Of a DNA stretch of 64,000 bases, positions 15,904 through 39,538 are shown piece after piece. Made by a program: the position numbers and the translations under genes. The notes below the pieces were generated by a model. That model was not told where the DNA came from. It saw only the letters and a list, made by a program, of their open reading frames with translations, and did no database searches. The DNA comes from an uncultured Holophagales bacterium. GTDB lineage: Bacteria; Acidobacteriota; Thermoanaerobaculia; Multivoradales; UBA5704. How positions within the stretch are numbered: position 1 is the first letter of the stretch; every line of letters starts with the position of its first letter. Location: positions 32,001 through 96,000 of the forward strand of contig CAWJGT010000034.1 in the NCBI GenBank assembly GCA_963842525.1, given 5' to 3'.

Positions 15904-17149
15904 ATGGCGGATGCTCCCAAGCTCCTGGTCCTCGGATGCGGTTTCGGCGGTTACTCCCTGCTGGCGAACCTGAAGCGCAGGCACTGGAGCATCACCCTCC
16001 TCAGCCCGCGGAACTACTTCCTCTTCACCCCTCTGCTCCCTTCAGCCGTCAGCGGCAGCGTCGAGTTTCGCAGCATCCTGGAACCGGTCCGTCGCCGGCT
16101 CCGCGACGTCCGCCTGATCGAGGGGTACGCCGAGTCGGTGGACTGGGAGACCCGGACCGTCTCCTGCTCGGCCGCCGTCGGAGAAGAACGGTTCAGCCTG
16201 CCGTATGACGTCCTGGTCCTCGCCGTCGGCGCGGCGGTGGGGGACTACGGAGTGCCGGGCGTCGCCGAGCACGCCCTGAAGCTCGCCAGCGTGGAAGACG
16301 CCCAGGCGATCCGGCGGAGGATCCTGGAGCAGATCGCCAGAGCGGAGGTCCCGGCCCTCACCCCGGAGCAGATCCGCGAGCGTCTCACCTTCGTCGTCTG
16401 CGGCGGGGGGCCCACCGGCGTCGAGGCGGCGGCGGAGATCCACGACCTGCTGGACGAGGAGCTGCACCTCCAGCTTCCCCGAGCTCGCCCCGCAGGCCCG
16501 GGTGGTCCTCGTCGAAGCGCTCGAGCGCCTCCTCACCAGCTTCGACGAGGCGCTGGCGCAGTACACCCTGCGTCATTTCGCCCGCGAAGGGATCGAGGTG
16601 CGCACGCGGACCAAGGTGACGGCGATCGAGCCCGGCGCCGTCGTCCTGGAGGATGGAGAGCGCATCCGCTGTGGCCTGGTCCTCTGGGCGGGGGGCAACG
16701 CGCCCGTGCCGTTCCTCCGCGCCCTTGATGGCGTGGAGCTCGACCGCCGCGGCCGGCTGCGGATCGACGACCATCTCCGCATCCCGGGCCGGCTCGACGT
16801 CTATGCTCTCGGCGACTGTGCGGCGGTGGGGGAGCCGCCGCTGCCGGCCACGGCCCAGGTGGCGCAGCAGCAGGGGAAGTACCTCGCCCGCGCCCTCGGT
16901 CATCGGCGCGAGGGACGCGAGGGGCGGCCTGTCGCGCCGTTCCGATTCAAGGCCTCCGGCATGCTGGCCTACATCGGCGGCGGCCAGGCGCTGGCGGATC
17001 TGCCACAGGTCAAATGGAGCGGCCGGGCCGCCTGGCTCTTCTGGCGCTCCGTCTACCTCACCAAGCTGGTCAGCCCGGCCAACAAGATCAAGGTCCTCTT
17101 CGACTGGATGAAGGCGAGGCTCTTCGGCCGCGACATCAGCAGGTTCTGA
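15904..17149 (+). CDS. ndh: Type II NADH:quinone oxidoreductase (frameshift near 16470)
   Basis: GCGFGG, FLFTPLLP, GGGPTGVE, YALGDCA, PATAQVAQQQG, and C-terminal LFGRDISRF. Confidence 0.9.
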
Positions 17150-17155
17150 GATCGC

Positions 17156-19570
17156 TCACGTCTTGACGCCGAGGAAGAGATAGCCGGCGAGGATCGCGAA
17201 GACCGTGCCGGGGCTCCACACCGCGACGGCGGGGGGCAGAGCCCCGGTCTCGCCGAGGGTCGTGAAGAAGGCGTAGACGCCCAGGAACACCATCCCCAAA
17301 ACAACCGAGACGCCGATCCCGTAGAGCGCTCCCTGCCGGCCGAGGCGGAAGGCGAAGGGGAGGCCCACCAGGGCCATGATCAGCGAGACGACGGGAAAGG
17401 CGATCTTGTTGTAGAGCTGCACCTTGAGCTCGGGCACCGGCTGGCCGCTTCCTTCGAGCTCCTGGATGTACTCCCTGAGCTCGCCATAGCGCATCTGCTC
17501 CGGTGGCCGGATCTCGGAGTCGAAGTAGTCCGGCGTCTCCGGATAGCGGACGATCTTCGGCGTCTCGAAGCGCTGGTAGTCCGTCATTTCGACGCCGTCG
17601 ACCGTGCGGGCCCAGCCGTTGGAGAACACCCAGGCATCCCCGATGTACTGCGCTGTCTCGGCAAAGAGCCGGCGGGTCAGACGGTGGCTCGCGTCGAAGT
17701 CGAACACCTGCAGGCGCTGCAGCGTTTGCTGCTTGCGGGTCGTAGTGGATGTAGTTGTAGATGTAGCGCCCCTGCCCGAACAGCCATTGCCGGTCCGCCC
17801 GCCGGTACGTCCGCACCGTCTCCTTGCCGCGGATGCGGTCCTTGAGCTGCGCCACCTTCTCATTGGACGCGGGGAGCACCTTGGTCTCCAGATAGGTGCA
17901 GAAAAGCGACACCAGGAGCGCCGCGGCAAGAGCGGGGACCGCCAGCCGGTAGAGGCTCACTCCCAGCGCCTTGGCGGCGGTGATCTCGTTGGTGCGGGAA
18001 AGGAGGCTGAAGGTCATCAGAGTTGTCACCAGCACCACGACCGGCGCGATCTCGTAGAACATCTGGAGCGAGCCGTACTTGTAGTAGTTGAGGACCAGGA
18101 GCTTGGGCACCTTGTTCTTGAAGATCTCGTCGATCGTCTCGCCCAGGTCGAAGATGATGAAGAGCGAGACGCCCGAAAGCACCACCAGCAGGAAGACCAG
18201 CGAGAACAGGCGCACGACATAGCGGTCCAGCAGGTTGGGGAAGGCGAGGCGCACGCGGGCGATCGGCCGCGGGATGCGGAAGACGAGCTCCTCCGGCGCG
18301 AAGCCCGGGCCTCCCGGGATCGCTGCCGCTCCTCCCGCCGCGCCACGCGCTCGCGGATCCGCTCGCGCCGCTTCTCCCGGCGCATCCCCCGGAGCACCAG
18401 GAGGCCGCCCCAGACGTCCTCCCGCACCCAGCGGTCCAGCCGGCTCATCAGGAGGCTCTTGTCACGATTGCGGCGGATCAGCAGGAAGACGCCGGCGACG
18501 GCAGAGGACAGGTTGGGCGAGCCACATGCCCAGCCAGCCCGGAACGCGGCCGAAGCGCGCCGCCTCCTCGCCGTTGTTGAGCAGCAGGTAGTAGACGATG
18601 AGCACGCCGATCGAAAGGGCGAACCCCGAGGTCTTGCCACCGCGCTTGTTGTTGATCCCGAGGGGCAGGGCGAACAGGCCGAAGACCATGCAGGCGACCG
18701 GGATCGAGAACTTCTTGTGGATCTCGACCTCGGCCAGGTTGCGCTGCTCGTCCGAGGCGGTCGGGTCGTGCTGGAGCTCGCGCAGCTCCTTGAGCGTCAG
18801 CTCCCGGACGCCTTTCGAGACCGAGATCTTGGCCTTCTGCTCGCTGGTGAACTGGTCCTCCAGGACAAGGTCGAGCTCGCGGTGCCGGCTGATCTCGTAG
18901 CGGTCCGGGGCGTTCAGGTCCACCTTGTGGCGGGCGGCGTTGAACAGCCGGAGGACAACCTTCTCGCCGGTCGGGTCGACGAGCACCTCACCCCAGTCGG
19001 CGATGGTGACCTGGCTGGTCGGCTCGCGGACTCGGCGAGGAAGACCCCCTTCCAGCGCTTCTCGCCCGGCGGCACCTCGAAGACGTAGACCACCTTGCCC
19101 TCCCATTCCTCGTAGAAGACCCGCGGCTGCGACCTGCTGCGAGACTGCTCTGGGTGAGGATCTCGAGCCGGAGCTGCTGGAGGGACTGGTTGCCCCACGG
19201 CAGCGCGTAGACCATCAGCACGATGTTGAGCAGCCGTGAAGAGGGCCGAAAGCAGCAGGATGGGGCGGTAGAGGGTGAGGAGGCTGATGCCGCTGGCCCG
19301 CATGGCAATCAGCTCGCTGTCGGACGACAGCCGGCCCACGGCGATCAGGATGCCGAACAGGAGCGACATCGGCAGCGTGAGGACGACGATGTTCGGCAGG
19401 GTCAGCACCAGCAGCTCGCCGACGATCGAGGCCGGCAGCCCGCGGCGGATGATCATCTCCGCGGACTGGAACAGGAACCGGAGGAGCAGGAGGAAGGTAT
19501 AGACTAGGAACCCGAGCCCGAGCGGGCCCAGGATCTCCGTGAGGATGTAGCGATCGAGACGCTTCAGCAC
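17156..19570 (-). CDS. lptFG: Fused LptF-LptG LPS export permease (multiple frameshifts)
   Basis: LDRYILTE...GRLSSDSELIAMRASGISL (LptF) and EIHKKFSIP, then a second LLDRYVVR...LSRTNEITAAKALGVSL (LptG), with no clear separate start. Confidence 0.82.
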
Positions 19571-19581
19571 GGCGCCATTCT

Positions 19582-20032
19582 ATGGACCCGCACGGCTCGT
19601 CACAACCTCGCCGCCTCCGCCTTCAGCGCCGCTATCGTTTCAGCGCCAGCCATCTCTACCGGCGTCCCGAGTGGTCGGAGGAGGAGAACCGCCGGCGGTT
19701 CGGCAAGTGCGCCAACCTGCCGGGGCACGGCCACAACTACCGTCTGTGGGTCACCGTCGAGGGGACCGTCGATCCCGCGACCGGTTTCGTCGTGGACCTG
19801 GGAGCCCTGGACGCCCTCGTCCCGGAGCGCGTGATCGAGCGCCTCGACCACCAGCATCTGAATTCCGCGCTGCCCGAGATTCGGAGAAGGGCAGTCGATC
19901 CCCTCCAGCGAGAACCTCGTCCGCTGGATCCACGGTCAGCTCGACGGCCATCTGCCGAACGGCGCCGACCTCGCCGGCCTCCGTCTGGAAGAGGACGAGG
20001 ATCTGGGCGCCGAGTGGCAGAGATCCTTCTGA
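19582..20032 (+). CDS. queD: 6-carboxytetrahydropterin synthase (QueD/PTPS), frameshifted
   Basis: FSASHLY...FGKCANLPGHGHNY...LDHQHLN, then PSSENL in the shifted frame. Confidence 0.85.
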
Positions 20033-20075
20033 CGGACGAACCGATGTACGCCGCGGGAACGCGCACACGGAGGCG

Positions 20076-20103
20076 CGTTAACATAATGTGTCTTATGAGA
20101 CTG
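20076..20103 (-). other. dif: dif-like XerC/XerD recombination site
   Basis: The minus strand reads CAGTCTCATAA-GACACA-TTATGTTAACG versus E. coli dif GGTGCGCATAA-TGTATA-TTATGTTAAAT (XerD arm 9/11, CATAA-N6-TTATG core intact). It is an AT-rich island between convergent queD and parB. Confidence 0.8.
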
Positions 20104-20160
20104 GACGCACGGACGCTGATCTCGCGGGGAAGATCGCCCGAGGACAGCCAGGATGGCTAC

Positions 20161-21044
20161 CTACGTGTGCGCGGTGCGCAGGTCGGCCAGGATCTGCTCC
20201 AGGGCGCGGATCAGATCGTCGCTTGTCGACCTCGCTCTGGCGGAACGCCAGGGACAGACTGTAGCTCCGGTCCGGCGACTTGAACCGGAACACATAGGGC
20301 TTGCGGCGGCCGGGCTTGCCTCCTTGTCGACCCGCCGCAGGCGCTGGCGCAGGTCGTCGCGGTTGAGGCCGCGGCGGGCCACCTCTTCGAGCAGCTCGAT
20401 CATCTCCGGCTCGTTGCCGGCCTTGAGCACCTCCAGCAGCAGCGACTTCGAGGTGATCCCCAGGGCCTGCACCGTGTCGCGGACCCGGGGCGGCATCTGC
20501 AACAGCGAAAGGCTCTCGGTGATCACCGTCCGGGACTTGCCGACCGCCGACGCGATCTCCTCGTGGGTGTAGCTGTGGTTCTCGGCCAGCATCCGGTAGC
20601 CTTCTGCCTCTTCGAAGGGCGTCAGATCCTTCCGCTGCAGGTTCTCGATCAGGGCGATCTCGAGAGCTTCCTGCTCTGAGACGTCCATCTCGATGACCGG
20701 CACCTCGTAGAGCCCGGCCTCCTGCGCGGCCCGGTAGCGGCGCTCGCCGGAGATGATCCGGTACAGGACGCCGGCCGGCCCGGCCGGCCCGTCCTCGATC
20801 GGCCTCCGGACGGGGCCGGACCAGGATCGGCTCCAGCACCCCCTTGTCCCGGATCGAGGCCACCAGCTCGTCGAGGTCTCCCATGGTCGAGCGCGGCTGG
20901 TTCGGGTCGGGCTCGATGGTCGACAGCGGGATCATCTTCCCCACCGGCGTTTCGTGGCGGGCGGTGAGCTCCTCGACGAAGTGGGTGTCGTGGCGCATCT
21001 TCACGCGCATGGGGCAGACCGCGCTTGCGGGCAGGCTCAGACAC
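20161..21044 (-). CDS. parB: ParB/Spo0J-family protein (divergent paralog, frameshifted)
   Basis: PNQPR, GVLEPILVRP, GERRYRAA (in the shifted frame), ALIENLQRKDLTPFEEA, and HTH THEEIASAVGKSRTVITESL. Confidence 0.88.
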
Positions 21045-21799
21045 GGCTCAACACCTCCTCGGAAAGCCGGTAGTACTCGTAGGCTCCCGTCGACCGCGGC
21101 GCGAAGGTGAAGATCGACTCCCGGTAGGCAGGGCTCTCCTCCAGGCGGACGCTCTTCGTGATCACCGTCTCGAAGACCTTGTTCCCGAAGACCTGTCTGG
21201 ATCTGCTCGTAGATGTCCTTGGCCAGCAGCGTCCGCTTGTCGTACATGGTGATCAGCGCGCCCAGGATCTGCAGCTGCGGGTTGGCCCGGACCTTGATCT
21301 TGTCGATCGTCTCCAGCAGGTCGTCCGTCCCTTCCAGGGCGAAGTAGCTGGCCTGGATGGGGATCAGCACGTGGCTGGCTGCCACCAGCGCGTTCACCGT
21401 GATGATCCCCAGGGTCGGCGGCGTGTCGATGATGATGTAGTCGTAGTCGTCCTGGACGCTGCTGCAGCTCGTCCTTCAGCCGGTAGTGGCTGTCGAGCTC
21501 GCCGATCAGCTTGGCCTCGATCTTGGCGAGGGCGATCGTGGACGGGGCGATGAAGAGGTTCGCGACCTTCTCCGCCGGCCGGATGATGTCGGACAGATGG
21601 AGGTCGTCCTCGCGTGAGGGCGTCGTACATCGAGAGCTGGAAGCTCGTGGATGTCGAGGAAGGACATCGAGCTGTTGGCCTGGGGATCGAGGTCGACGAT
21701 CAGGGTCCGGATGCCCTTGCTGGCCAGGGCCGCGGCGAGATTGATAGCGGTGGTGGTCTTGCCGACTCCACCCTTCTGGTTGGCGATCGCGATGATCAT
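21037..21799 (-). CDS. parA: ParA/Soj ATPase (frameshifted)
   Basis: [48 protein letters not shown]. Confidence 0.9.
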
Positions 21800-21862
21800 G
21801 AGAGATCGGCAGTCTAAGGGATGCACTCCGGCGGGGTCAAGGATGCCGCTCGCGGGCCGCGA

Positions 21863-21886
21863 CGAATGTCGGCGCGCCGACATTCG
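21863..21886. promoter_or_regulatory. Perfect 24-bp palindrome CGAATGTCGGCGCGCCGACATTCG upstream of parA (parS-like candidate)
   Basis: Read directly. The 20-bp core recurs at 36933-36952. Confidence 0.6.
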
Positions 21887-21932
21887 CCGCTAAGTCTCGG
21901 AAATTGCGCCACTTAGAGGGCAGAACCGCAGC

Positions 21933-22437
21933 TCACATCGTGTACTTGCCCAGCTCTTCCGGGCTGATCTCTTCGAGCCAGCTTCTTGAGCTTCTCCTCG
22001 TCGCTCACCTGGGTCGCCAGGTCGGCCGCCTGCGCCTTGTCGAGGACCGCGCGCAGGACGAAGATCGGAGCATCGGTGCGCAGGGCCAGGGCGATGGCGT
22101 CGCTCGGCCGGGCGTCGACGGTCGACCGGGTCGCTCCTGGTGTTGGACATGGATGCAGGGCGAAGAAGGTGCTCTCCCGCAGGTCGGAGATGACGATCTT
22201 CTCGACCGTGGCGCCGAGCTGCTCGACCACGGGCGCAGGAGGTCGTGGGTCATCGGGCGTGGCGGCTCCACCCCCTCGATCCGCAGGGCGATGGCGTTGG
22301 CTTCGAAGACGCCGATCCAGATCGGCAGGAACAACTGGCTCTCGGGTGTCGCGGAGGATGACGATCGGGACGTTGGAGGCAGGGTCGAGCATCAGGCCCT
22401 TGATTTCTACCTGGAGCTCGTCGTTGGGGTCGCTCAT
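21933..22437 (-). CDS. Bifunctional nuclease (DUF151) family protein (frameshifted)
   Basis: [36 protein letters not shown]. Confidence 0.88.
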
Positions 22438-22442
22438 GAAGC

Positions 22443-23844
22443 CTATTCTGAGCGCCGCCGGGACAGGTCAAGGCGATCTCGGAGACGAGCGCGTCCGGAG
22501 CGGATGAGGCTGATGCGCCGAGCAGGCTGTGAGCTGAGAGCCGCTGCACCTGGACCGGGTGACGCTGCCCAGCGGCGCCGGCTCGGGGCCGGCCTGGAAG
22601 TGGACGATCCGGTGGCAGGGGGTGCGGCCGGTCTGCAGTCCCCGGCTGCTTGCCCCCAGCCGGTCACCACGACGTCGAAGTCCTCCCCCACCAGGCTCCT
22701 CGTTGATCTCGCGCTGGATCCCCTCCTGGACGGCGAAGAGGCGCTGCAGGCGCTCGGAGGCGACTGCCGGAATCGACCTGCGCCGTCGAGCCGCGGCGCC
22801 GCGGTCCCCGGCCGCGGCGAGTACTTGAAGGCGAAGACGGCGCCGAAAGCGGACCTCGCGGACCAGGTCGAGCGTCTGCTGGAAGTCCTCTTCGGTCTCG
22901 CCCGGGAAGCCGACGATGATGTCGGTCGAGAGCGCCAGGCCCGGCCGCGCACGACGGAGCTGCGCCGACGAGGTCGAGGTACTCGGCGCGCGTGTAGCCG
23001 CGCCCCATGCGCCGCAGCACGCGGTCGGACCCCGACTGCACCGGCAGGTGGAGGTAGGGGCAGATGTTGGCGTGGCGTCCCCACCTGCTCCACCATGCGC
23101 GGCGTGAAGTCGCGCGGGTAGGAGGTGACGAAGCGCAGGCGCTGGAGACCCGGCAGCGGTCGCCACGGCTTCCAGCAGGTCGGCGAAGTCGAGGTCGCCT
23201 CCCGGCTCGCGCCAGTGGTTGACCGTCTGCCCGAGCAGCTCGATCTCCTGGAAGCCATAGTCGAGGAGGTGCCGGACCTCGCGCAGGACCTCTGCCAGGG
23301 GACGGCTCCGCTCCGGCCCGCGGGTCTGCGGCACGATGCAGAAGGTGCAGTTCTTGTCGCACCCCTCGATGATGGTCACCATCCCCTTGTATTCGCCCTG
23401 CCGGGAGATCGCGTCGATGTCGTACGTGCCGGTCCTCCGGAAAGCCGGTGGCCACGACCCGCTCGCCCGCCCGGCGCCGCGCGAGGACCTCCTGCAGCTC
23501 CCCGACCCGCGCGGGTCCGAGGACGAAGTCGAGGTCGGGCACCCGGCGCGAGAGCCTGCTCCCCTTCCTGCTGGGCCACGCAGCCGCAGAGGCCGATCAG
23601 GAGGTCCTCGTCGCGTCCGCTTGAGCAGGCGGTATTCGCCCAGGCGCGAGTAGACCTTCTGCTCGGCCTTCTCCCGCACGCTGCAGGAGTTGAGCAGGAT
23701 GATGTCCGCCTCTTCCGGCTCCCGGGTCGGCAGGATGCCCTGCTGCATGAGCTGGCCGGCCATGCGCTGGCTGTCCAGCTCGTTCATCTGGCAGCCCCAG
23801 GTCTCGATGAAGACCCGGCGCGGTTTTTTGGAAGGCGGGGTCAT
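22443..23844 (-). CDS. miaB: tRNA-2-methylthio-N6-dimethylallyladenosine synthase (frameshifted; 3' end approximate)
   Basis: [24 protein letters not shown], radical-SAM [36 protein letters not shown]. Confidence 0.92.
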
Positions 23845-36932: not shown

Positions 36933-36952
36933 AATGTCGGCGCGCCGACATT
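36933..36952. promoter_or_regulatory. Second copy of palindrome AATGTCGGCGCGCCGACATT
   Basis: Identical 20-bp core to 21865-21884, intergenic between priA and accA. Confidence 0.6.
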
Positions 36953-36990
36953 TCTGCGGATGTTGCAATGGTCGTAGATTCGGCGATCGC

Positions 36991-37090
36991 AGAAAGGACG
37001 ACAGGACGATAAGGACACAAAGGACAGCAGAGGAAGGCGTGTTCCCCTGTTGTCCTTGATGTCCTTGTCGTCCTTGTGGTCCTTTGTTCT
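36991..37090. repeat. Inverted array of ~9-bp AAGGACnnn / nGTCCTT units
   Basis: Four (A)AGGAC units followed by four GTCCTT units, immediately downstream of the priA stop. Confidence 0.65.
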
Positions 37091-39538
37091 CTACAGCAAC
37101 TGCTGCGGATCCACATCCACCACCAGCCCCGCCGGCGGGTTGCCCTGCAGGACGTCCTCGAGCAGGCGGTGGAGGTCCTTGCCGCTGGCCGAGCGGGCGA
37201 GGAGCTGGAAGCGCCACTCCCCTCTCAGCCTTTCCAGAGGAGCCGGGGCGGGGCCGGTGATGCGGACCGAGCGAGCGAGCGGGTGGGCGGACAGGTCTGC
37301 CGAGAGATCCGAGATGACCGACCAGGCCTTGTCCCGGTTCTTGTCCCGCGCCAGGAGCTGGACCATCCGGGTATAGGGCGGATAGTGGAAGACGCGGCGG
37401 AAGCGCATCTCTTCCCGCATGAAGCCTTCGTCGTCCTGGTGCAGGGCTGCCTGGATCGCATAGTGGTCGGGATGGAAGGTCTGGATCACCACGCGGCCGG
37501 GCCTGTCTCCCCGACCGGCGCGGCCCGCGACCTGGGTCAAAAGGTTGTAGGTGCGCTCGACGGCGCGGAAGTCGGGAAAGCCCAGGTAGGCGTCGGCCGC
37601 CAGGACCGCGGTCAATGCCACGCGCGGGAAGTGGTGTCCCTTCGAGACCATCTGGGTGCCGATGAGGACCTGCACCTCGCCGCGGCCGAAGCGTTCGAGC
37701 ACGGCCGCCGGACCGCCGGGGCGGCGCGCGGTGTCGCGGTCGAGCACATCAACCGTGGCCTCGGGGAAGAGCTCGCGGAAGGTCTCCTCCACCCGCTCGG
37801 TGCCGGCGCCGATCGGCTCCAGGGCCTCCTCGGAGCAGGCCGGGCAGCGCGCCGGCACGGAGAGCGTCGAGCCGCAGTAGTGGCAGACGAGCCGCCGGTC
37901 CCGCCGGTGCAGGGTGCGCGGCAGGCCGCAGTCCGGACAGCGGAAGTCCTCGCCGCACGCGCGGCAGAGGAGCACAGGCGCATACCCGCGCCGGTTGCGC
38001 AGCAGGATGATCTGGTCGCCCGCCGCCAGCGCCTCCCGGATCTCGAGTTGCAACCGCTCGGAGAACGCCACGTCGCCGGGCCGCCGCGACACCCCCTCCT
38101 GCCGCAGGTCGACCAGGATGCCTTCGGGCAGCGTCCCCTGCCCCGCCCGCGCGGTCAGCACCAGCGGCTCCAGCTTGCCGCGCTCAACGTTGTACCGGCT
38201 CTCCAGGCTCGGCGTCGCCGAGACCAGCAGCACGGCCGCGCCCGCGTCCCGGCCACGGACCAGGGCGAGGTCGCGGGCGTGATAGCGCGGGGCGACCTCC
38301 TGCTTGTACGAGGTGTCCTGCTCCTCGTCGACCACGAGCAGGCCGAGGTCCGAGACCGGCGCGAACAGCGCCGAGCGGGGACCCAGGATGACCCGCGCCT
38401 CGCCGCGGCGGATCCGCTCCCACTCCTGGTGCCGTTCCCCCGTGCCCAGGCCCGAGTGCAGGATGGCGAGCCGCTCGCCGAACCGGCGCTCCACAGCCCG
38501 CGCCAGGGCGGGCACGAGCGCGATCTCCGGCACCAGCAGGATCGCCGACCGGCCGCGCTCCAGGGCCGCCTCGCCCGCGCGGAGGTAAACCTCGGTCTTG
38601 CCCGAGCCGGTCATCCCCTGAAGAAGGAACGGTGCGAACTCGCGCCGCTCCATCACATCCGTGAGCCGCCGCAGCGCCGTCGCCTGGTCCGGCCGGAGGA
38701 CGATCCCGCCGGGGGCCTCCTCCGGGATCGTCATCATGTGCCGGTCGAGCGACAGCCGCTCGACCTGGGTGAACTGGCGGAGCACGCCGAGCGAGATCAG
38801 CCGGCGCAACACCGCGGGAGTGCAACCCACCGCGGCCACCACCTCGGCCGTGGTGGCCGGGCGGCCGATCGCGGACAGGTATTCGATGACCGCCTTGCCC
38901 GGCGCCGACCGGCCGGCCGTGGCGAAATGGGTGGCGAGGCCGCCCGGAGCGAGCTCGACAGCCGTCACATAGCGTGGGGACCGGCTGGATCCGGACCGCT
39001 CCTCGGCCTCGCCGGCGATCCTCCCCCGCACGCCCAGGTCGGCGATCACCCGGCCGAGGTCATCGATCCCCGTGCACGCCTGGATCTCGGCGATCGACAT
39101 CCGGCCGCCCTCGCGCAGCGCTTCGAGCACCAGCCGCTCCTCCGGAGTCCGCGGCAGGGAGAGCGCCCCGGCATCGGTCAGCCACACCCGGCGGTCCCCC
39201 CAGGGCGGCAGGTCGGACGGCAGCATGGTGCGGAAGACCTCGCCCACGGGAGCGTAGTAGTAGTCGGCCATGAACCGTCCCAGCTCCAGCAGATCCTTGG
39301 GAAGGATCGGCTCGCGGTCGATCACCTCCTCGAGAGGACGCAGGTTGACCCCCTCGGGCCGCCGGTCATGGACCGCCACGATCACCCCCATCAGCCGGCG
39401 CTTCCCCACCCGCACCCGCGCCCGCGCTCCAGGTAATGCCAGGGACCGGAACGCCGGCGGGATCTCGTACGTCAGAGCATCCGGGAGGGGCACAGGCAGG
39501 GCGACCTCGGCGTAGAGGGGGGTGGAAGGCGAGGGCAT
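37091..39538 (-). CDS. priA: Primosomal protein N' (PriA)
   Basis: GMTGSGKTEVY, LVPEIAL, DEEQD, SATPSLES, the CxxC x4 Zn region, GTQMVSKG, QVAGRAGR. Confidence 0.96.
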   Translation of the reverse strand: MPSPSTPLYAEVALPVPLPDALTYEIPPAFRSLALPGARARVRVGKRRLMGVIVAVHDRRPEGVNLRPLEEVIDREPILPKDLLELGRFMADYYYAPVGEVFRTMLPSDLPPWGDRRVWLTDAGALSLPRTPEERLVLEALREGGRMSIAEIQACTGIDDLGRVIADLGVRGRIAGEAEERSGSSRSPRYVTAVELAPGGLATHFATAGRSAPGKAVIEYLSAIGRPATTAEVVAAVGCTPAVLRRLISLGVLRQFTQVERLSLDRHMMTIPEEAPGGIVLRPDQATALRRLTDVMERREFAPFLLQGMTGSGKTEVYLRAGEAALERGRSAILLVPEIALVPALARAVERRFGERLAILHSGLGTGERHQEWERIRRGEARVILGPRSALFAPVSDLGLLVVDEEQDTSYKQEVAPRYHARDLALVRGRDAGAAVLLVSATPSLESRYNVERGKLEPLVLTARAGQGTLPEGILVDLRQEGVSRRPGDVAFSERLQLEIREALAAGDQIILLRNRRGYAPVLLCRACGEDFRCPDCGLPRTLHRRDRRLVCHYCGSTLSVPARCPACSEEALEPIGAGTERVEETFRELFPEATVDVLDRDTARRPGGPAAVLERFGRGEVQVLIGTQMVSKGHHFPRVALTAVLAADAYLGFPDFRAVERTYNLLTQVAGRAGRGDRPGRVVIQTFHPDHYAIQAALHQDDEGFMREEMRFRRVFHYPPYTRMVQLLARDKNRDKAWSVISDLSADLSAHPLARSVRITGPAPAPLERLRGEWRFQLLARSASGKDLHRLLEDVLQGNPPAGLVVDVDPQQLL

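Follow-up and report, generated by a model that had tools for sequence, protein, structure and literature searches.

On bacterial chromosomes ParABS has so far been treated as a device of the replication origin, and how the terminus is placed and its sister copies are separated outside enterobacteria and Caulobacter is an open question. The closest described terminus organisers are MatP with its matS sites in enterobacteria and ZapT, which is described as such an organiser in Caulobacter (PMC7188993, PMC7858052). Two further groups of systems are related through their proteins. Noc of Firmicutes is a ParB paralog that coexists with canonical ParB, and secondary replicons such as Vibrio chromosome 2 and the Thermus megaplasmid (parABSm) carry a second ParAB with its own centromere, insulated from the main system. 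Here we describe a ParABS-like locus, parA2-parB2 (parAB2), in a 64,000-nucleotide stretch of DNA (hereafter the window; positions 32001-96000 of contig C34) from the genome of an uncultured soil acidobacterium (G000; 9.95 Mb, 68% GC, 34 contigs). The locus is an additional ParABS-like cassette of great age, which has a palindromic site of its own and a fixed place beside a dif-like site at the terminus, and it coexists in the same chromosome with a canonical parA1-parB1 copy near the origin.

With the origin systems (Soj/Spo0J-parS) the locus shares a ParA of Soj size with a deviant Walker A motif, a ParB with CTPase motifs, a helix-turn-helix (HTH) domain and a putative small C-terminal domain, the parA-parB operon order, and a 16-bp TGT...ACA palindrome near or inside parB, much as parS lies within spo0J in B. 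subtilis. It differs from them in its position at dif and in several motifs: its half-site is TGTCGGC, with positions 4-7 all different from canonical TGTTTCA, its ParB has a recognition helix of the form ..ITE.L.L rather than ..V.N.LRLL and SKS.LL in place of GHAR.LL, and its N-terminal peptide reads RGLP..MRHD.HYVE.L. The likeness to MatP/matS and ZapT lies in a sequence-specific protein whose sites are confined to the terminus around dif, and in the proposed outcome, a terminus (ter) region kept in place for division and dimer resolution; those proteins, however, belong to unrelated families without an ATPase motor or a CTP clamp. There are also more matS sites, over a much wider domain, than the 1-5 sites within about 130 kb that characterize the present system. 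Like Noc, ParB2 is a paralog with changed HTH specificity that keeps its CTPase motifs beside a canonical ParB, but it scores well below the Noc cut-off (147 bits against model TIGR04285, cut-off 315), has its own ParA, and has its sites concentrated at the terminus, which the Noc-binding sites avoid; in the model its N-terminus is a basic, disordered stretch without any evident membrane helix. Finally, the second ParABS of plasmids and secondary replicons serves a separate replicon near its origin, whereas parAB2 lies on the main chromosome opposite the origin, and the closest plasmid ParBs are less than 60% identical to ParB2. Searches of the literature, which leave aside subscription journals and supplements, turned up no description of a dif- or terminus-linked ParABS and no paper with the 16-bp string of the palindrome; the trees in the supplementary information of a survey of orphan ParBs may include the ParB2 clade (PMC12704722).

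The cassette, its palindrome and its linkage to dif

On the minus strand, read from window position 22437 to 20076, a BFN-domain gene (PF02577, 'bifunctional nuclease'; 21913-22437) is followed by a palindrome, a sigma-70-like promoter, parA2, parB2 and the dif-like site. The palindrome is a candidate parS2 site, with a 16-bp core TGTCGGCGCGCCGACA (21867-21882) inside a perfect 24-bp palindrome (21863-21886), and its core lies 27 bp upstream of the promoter-like site and 68 bp upstream of the parA2 start codon. The promoter-like site itself, TTGACC-18-TAGACT (21811-21840, minus strand; one found against 0.0 expected), falls in a block that is conserved in two congeners. Next comes parA2 (21037-21799; ATG 21799-21797, stop 21039-21037), encoding a Soj-type ParA, which overlaps by 8 nt the start of parB2 (20161-21044; GTG 21044-21042, stop 20163-20161), encoding a predicted ParB-family CTPase with an altered HTH domain. 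The dif-like site for XerC/XerD (20076-20103, minus strand) has its core at 20077-20101, made up of GTCTCATAA, the spacer GACACA and TTATGTTAAC, and ends 59 bp past the parB2 stop codon. The locus sits between housekeeping genes, with miaB and the BFN gene to one side and queD and lptFG to the other.

In Acidobacteriota, the phylum that the genome searches covered, these elements tend to occur together. A dif-like site lies 3' of parB2 in all 12 loci of the family and in 36 of 40 Thermoanaerobaculia loci at up to 4 mismatches (three have none and one is too short to judge), and a phylum-wide scan of 1.5-kb flanks, allowing up to 3 mismatches, found one near parB2 in 23 of 29 loci and in 0 of 29 when the sequences were reversed as a control. 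Its orientation relative to parB2 is flipped in 6 of the 40 Thermoanaerobaculia loci, and the gene beyond it is not conserved, a PTPS gene being confined to the window's own family while the adjacency of dif is kept. On the other side, 29 of 30 loci of the phylum have a BFN gene ahead of parA2 (or parB2), and it forms part of the conserved cluster; parA2 stands directly 5' of parB2 in 26 of 29, with overlapping or abutting frames.

The palindrome family, too, is almost confined to the surroundings of this operon. The core TGTCGGCGCGCCGACA occurs exactly twice in G000, where about 0.02 copies are expected from base composition, and both copies are within 17 kb of dif; the second candidate parS2 site (core 36935-36950, in a 20-bp palindrome at 36933-36952) lies between accA and priA, 16.8 kb from dif. 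All 12 family loci have the exact 16-mer upstream of parA2, although its flanks vary among them, and so do all 38 Thermoanaerobaculia loci that have enough upstream DNA, and over the whole phylum the family of sites reads TGTCGGC-NN-GCCGACA. A census of 31 ParB2-bearing genomes, which are kin so that the counts overstate independence, gave 51 sites, of which 46 share a contig with parB2 and lie no more than 77 kb from it, four are on other contigs and one is 450 kb away; four genomes have no such site. Apart from the two sites of G000, the single-contig genomes G011 and G128 have one site each, on the parB2 contig within the same 77 kb (that of G128 inside parB2), the single contig of G145 has five, all of them within 130 kb, to the left and right of dif, G219 has only the one at 450 kb, and G109 has none. 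Twenty further genomes hold 28 sites (26 on the parB2 contig within 51 kb, two on other contigs, none in three genomes), and five genomes of the same genus hold 13, of which 11 are within 18 kb. In each of these five a second site lies 11.8-15.1 kb from the first, matching the window site at 36935. The same pattern had 0 sites in 20 ParB2-lacking genomes, and a reversed-pattern control had two over all 50 relatives searched.

In other classes of the phylum the site is found within parB2, where it encodes C-R-x-A-D by the codons TGT CGG CNN GCC GAC A (9 loci). In two loci CRLAD is written with synonymous codons that break the site, and an exact copy stands upstream of parA2 instead, a sign that selection acts on the DNA too and not on the peptide alone. 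No canonical parS (TGTTNCACGTGNAACA) was found near the parAB2 locus. A preliminary description of this stretch, made from its letters, had already reported a 28-bp dif-like site beyond the parB stop and a perfect palindrome upstream of parA, both of which are present as set out above, and had proposed to check whether copies of the palindrome gather around dif or scatter like a repetitive extragenic palindromic (REP) element and whether dif-parAB synteny extends across Acidobacteriota; the two surveys found the gathering and the synteny.

Beside the second palindrome, at a distance of about 30 bp, repeated AAGGAC units after priA (36980-37095, minus strand) can form a stem of about 46 base pairs at -61.5 kcal/mol (z = -7.9 against shuffled sequences), which matches no Rfam family.

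The dif-like site and the position of the terminus

The dif-like site has the expected architecture, about 28 bp with two 11-bp arms, a 6-bp spacer and ..ATAA-N6-TTATG.. symmetry, and its arms and spacer are arranged as in the dif of Frankia alni that one article quotes (PMC3025954). The string CATAA-N6-TTATG has a single occurrence in the genome, and a dif consensus derived from relatives matches G000 only beside parB2 at up to 3 mismatches; a further copy in a gap is possible, as the assembly is an estimated 96% complete (contamination 3.4%). The genome encodes XerD (365 bits, over the cut-off, contig C23) and a XerC-like protein (304 bits, contig C1).

Plain GC skew, cumulative on C34 and coarse on eight contigs, is so weak (about 0.01-0.02) that it does not locate the terminus, and for this reason we turned to strand-polar octamers, which were learned on the two 2-Mb contigs C3 and C9 and then mapped on C34. 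G-rich octamers of the GGGGGAG/GGGGAGG/GTGGGGG family fall to 65-67% on one strand of C3 and C9, and on C34 the maximum-likelihood strand switch lies between C34:49357 and 54682 (window 17357-22682), with 39 on the plus and 17 on the minus strand to the left and 84 and 150 to the right (log-likelihood gain 10.5). This interval, a likely replichore junction, brackets the dif-like site at C34:52077-52101. Coding strand, estimated from GC content by codon position, is mostly plus in window 1-16 kb and almost only minus in 20-52 kb, converging near dif. The preliminary description had noted such a convergence near 20 kb and had named a skew switch near 20.1 kb as support for a terminus and a better dif elsewhere as a point against it; no better dif turned up in the 9.95 Mb, and the switch is seen with the polar oligomers, plain GC skew being too weak to decide. 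As an observation in its own right, the words that flip strand at dif are candidates for the FtsK-orienting (KOPS-like) words of this lineage.

In all eight relatives with long contigs parB2 is roughly antipodal to dnaA, 42-58% of the chromosome apart (genome sizes rounded except in G031, G109 and the record of locus L069). Among the single-contig genomes the distance is 0.49 of the chromosome in G011, 0.58/0.42 of 4,889,901 bp in G031, 0.53 in G219, 0.53 of 3,949,503 bp in G109, 0.48 in G128 and 0.47 in G145; it is about 0.47 in G010 and 0.498 of 8,777,251 bp in the record of L069.

Two ParB paralogs in one chromosome

The best ParB match of G000 (178.9 bits) is not the one in the window but lies on contig C25, about 15 kb from a dnaA locus (C25:151-1409); a separate canonical parAB/parS near dnaA, which the preliminary description proposed to look for, does exist. 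The order there is jag, two parS-like sites, rsmG, parA1, parB1 and bactofilin, with the parS-like sites to parB1 at C25:15.1-17.4 kb, and the two sites, at C25:15082 and 15120 (GTTCCACGTGGAAC and TTTCACGTGGAA), are the only parS-like sites in G000. Canonical parS is likewise found beside ParB1 or dnaA in G031, G145, G128 and G109. The bactofilin-like gene directly 3' of parB1 (C25:17421-17837, locus L083) has a parallel in Myxococcus, where a bactofilin gene also directly follows parB. The dnaA locus on C25, which is frame-broken and lies at the extreme start of the contig, is one of two in the assembly, an intact one being at C5:7443-8687 on a 48-kb contig; the doubling could stem from contamination, from another haplotype or from a contig end that was assembled twice.

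Since the frames of parAB2 are broken in G000, probably by errors (see below), the proteins were studied in the orthologous operon of locus L004, which is intact, with a ParA2 of 252 and a ParB2 of 291 amino acids (P0003 and P0002). ParA2 is Soj-type, matching AAA_31 (E=7e-59) and also CbiA, and its deviant Walker A motif KGGVGKT is invariant in the phylum alignment. ParB2 matches ParB_N (PF02195, E=6.5e-25) and HTH_ParB (PF17762, E=1.7e-17), and the window parB2 itself matches TIGR00180 in two frames with 109.9 and 36.6 bits. The CTPase motifs PNPxQPR (Box I), GERR (Box II) and ENLQR (Box III) are invariant in 24 aligned ParB2 rows and present in the window fragment (P0001). The recognition helix, GKSRTVITESLSLL in the window, follows the pattern GKSRT.ITE.L.L, compared with GKARTTVTNSLRLL in ParB1 and the solved ParBs, and the segment after it is SKS.LL (ITSKSLL in the window), where ParB1 and solved ParBs have GHAR/GQARPLL. 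A kept GERR motif, an altered helix and the lack of the usual GHARAL segment were all remarked in the preliminary description, and the ortholog alignment agrees on each.

The closest solved relatives of ParB2 are Spo0J, ParB and Noc, with KorB also among the matches. In the AlphaFold2 model (mean predicted local distance difference test score, pLDDT, 84.8) the N-terminal 32 residues are disordered and are followed by an N-terminal domain, the HTH domain and a C-terminal strand-strand-helix unit, and Foldseek aligns the model to the Caulobacter ParB-parS structure 6t1f with a template modelling score of 0.84. The C-terminal unit (residues 248-290) has high pLDDT; the matched solved structures are all C-terminally truncated. 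The disordered N-terminus is conserved and basic, (K/R)RGLP..(K/R)MRHD. A predicted complex of two ParA2 with ATP and ParB2 residues 1-40 scored 0.17, where the mark is 0.32, which is evidence neither for nor against contact.

A maximum-likelihood tree of 44 rows splits ParB1 (21 rows) from ParB2 (23 rows) at 100/100 support, with the ParBs of ParB2-lacking genomes falling into the ParB1 clade, and the similar internal groupings of both clades are expected for old paralogs under vertical inheritance. Of 41 genomes of the order, 38 have a ParB2 ortholog 63-94% identical to the window fragment, always together with a ParB1 at 40-47%. Farther out, about 113 of 200 further phylum genomes (a hand count; genomes at least 90% complete, among them the unpublished G062, G182 and G087) have a full-length ParB2-type match (E <= 1e-53) and two have a partial one, the others having a ParB1-type match only or none. 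Over the phylum ParA2 is 61-76% identical to the same reference for which ParB2 shows 48-68%. In the plasmid database PLSDB no plasmid ParB exceeds 60% identity to ParB2; 3935 records have a match and only two cover at least 80% of it, at 32-34% identity. These two plasmid ParBs (H1 and H2), both from Planctomycetes, align through the C-terminal domain of ParB2.

The dif consensus was also searched for in five ParB2-lacking genomes. It has a single site in G123, G168 and G222, three matches and one control match in G208, and none in G074. No BFN gene was found within 1.5 kb of the dif-like site in G222 and G208.

Possible function and competing explanations

We consider it rather probable that the locus is a terminus-dedicated ParABS-like system of ancient standing in Acidobacteriota. 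As for what it does, we infer as the best supported account that ParB2 would be loaded as a CTP clamp onto the palindrome, while ParA2 would position or segregate the ter/dif region. In detail, ParB2 dimers would recognize TGTCGGC-NN-GCCGACA as a private parS, close as a CTP clamp and slide onto neighbouring DNA including dif, 1.8 kb off, and ParA2, a Soj-type nucleoid-binding ATPase, would handle the ParB2 complex much like the cargo of a plasmid partition system. Together the two proteins might keep the terminus near mid-nucleoid as long as it is single and unreplicated and later separate the sister termini, so that dif would remain at the site of FtsK and XerCD action. Binding at the main site probably also autoregulates the operon, because this site is 27 bp upstream of the -35 box. 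To the wider proposal we would give not quite an even chance, namely that acidobacterial chromosomes have two centromeres, one at the origin served by ParB1 and one at the terminus beside dif served by ParB2 with its own ParA2, so that a partition machine built on a CTP clamp would actively place and segregate the terminus, in contrast to a passive mode or a tether of the MatP/ZapT type, with the BFN nuclease-parA2-parB2-dif cluster perhaps forming one segregation-finishing module. Were this true, a ParABS paralog fixed at dif across a phylum would be the first partition machine dedicated to the terminus, and two orthogonal ParB/parS systems in one chromosome would be a natural pair for studies of specificity switching and for labelling. 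The phyletic pattern offers natural experiments as well, with the cassette present in about 113 of 200 genomes, cleanly lost with BFN left beside dif in others, and stripped of ParA2 and of a nearby palindrome in one genus.

Several observations weigh against a partition role at the terminus. Cumulative GC skew on C34 peaks at 170-180 kb. About 87 of the 200 sampled genomes (hand count) are without ParB2, and in ParB2-lacking G123 and G168 (two of the four that bear a dif-like site) the BFN gene lies directly beside it, which means that part of the dif linkage may be inherited order around BFN and not selection on parAB2; BFN itself may be a terminus- or dif-linked gene. The N-terminus of ParB2 lacks the canonical ParA-activating LG(R/K)GL. 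Most ParB2-bearing genomes hold one or two sites, the main one just upstream of the promoter like a plain autoregulatory operator. In genus g18 (three genomes; loci L026, L038 and L039) parB2 adjoins dif without parA2 and without a nearby palindrome; here BFN directly abuts parB2, the recognition helix has drifted to GRSRVSVTESL, and a search for an alternative palindrome gave a sole candidate inside a neighbouring coding sequence. The pattern indicates that ParB2 can persist without its motor. Lastly, in G000 itself both frames are broken, by about seven single-base indels in 1.8 kb when aligned with the intact genes of two same-genus genomes (about four in parA2 and about three in parB2).

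These broken frames are probably errors of an unpolished long-read assembly rather than decay, to judge from the sequence. Most genes of the window are split across frames by single-base indels, for example lptF/G (17136-19570), miaB (22468-23844) and parAB2 (20161-21799), and around the indels of parAB2 the sequence is otherwise codon-conserved relative to the two congeners. Contigs of relatives from four soil sequencing runs (88-99% likeness) omit single letters at window 21009/10, 21194-6, 21460/4, 21610, 21638 and about 20785, where the window has extra bases, which fits assembly error and does not prove it. No sequencing run containing the window stretch was found (best share 0.16). A few contigs of relatives from RNA libraries fall on parB2, at most a weak hint that the gene is expressed in them.

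The loss of ParA2 in g18, the absent ParA-activating motif and the small number of sites per genome would suit a different account, in which ParB2 is a terminus-bound, non-partition CTP switch that marks the dif region, be it for loading, blocking or unloading SMC-type complexes, for division control or for helping FtsK and XerCD, and ParA2 is a mere regulator or accessory. Non-partition relatives of ParB are well documented, Noc and KorB being among the solved relatives of ParB2, and a survey of orphan ParBs describes others with such roles (PMC12704722). We regard this account as unlikely, given that parA2 stays directly 5' of parB2 with overlapping or abutting frames in 26 of 29 loci and is better conserved than its partner, which is hard to square with dispensability. 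It is improbable, too, that parAB2 is what remains of a partition module captured long ago from a plasmid or secondary replicon, kept only as a self-regulating operon with its dif adjacency inherited and its palindrome a mere operator. The promoter-proximal main site, the BFN-dif adjacency without parAB2 and the loss of ParB2 in many lineages would follow from such a history; yet some sites are tens of kb away from the promoter, to the left and right of dif, or lie within or past parB2 (G145, G189, G024 and the second site of the same-genus genomes), dif keeps its adjacency where the neighbours on its side differ, the ParB2 and ParB1 clades run parallel as under long vertical inheritance, and no close plasmid ParB was found in PLSDB.

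Two further explanations concern single parts of the locus. That the palindrome is no ParB2 site at all and instead a terminator or REP-like hairpin after BFN, or the operator of an unrelated transcription factor, is suggested by its place 31 bp past the BFN stop on the same strand and by a possible 14-bp stem. We hold it very improbable, because there is no T-tract and no terminator-like site at the palindrome, its fold is no better than that of shuffled sequences (z -1.25), its sequence is invariant without compensatory changes where the flanks vary, two copies in 9.95 Mb are not the scatter expected of a REP element, and the site is confined to ParB2-bearing genomes among those searched and is also found inside the parB2 reading frame. 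The position directly beside dif recalls, in turn, a mobile element integrated there by Xer recombination (IMEX), and the dif-associated gonococcal genetic island is described as encoding both ParA and ParB (PMC4207684). For parAB2 such an origin is barely credible, as the genome has one dif-like site and no flanking pair, the neighbours are the housekeeping genes miaB, BFN, queD and lptFG, and the cluster is phylum-wide and vertically inherited. A partition role for parAB2 at the terminus is the reading that we prefer.

Elsewhere in G000, three tyrosine-recombinase matches share an identical score (C3:356832, C9:1900178 and C25:538809), and four identical weak matches to the DnaA model (C9:1072906, C9:822343, C3:1637626 and C24:1247) are probably ATPases of the insertion sequence type. 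Both sets suggest repeated mobile elements in this genome.

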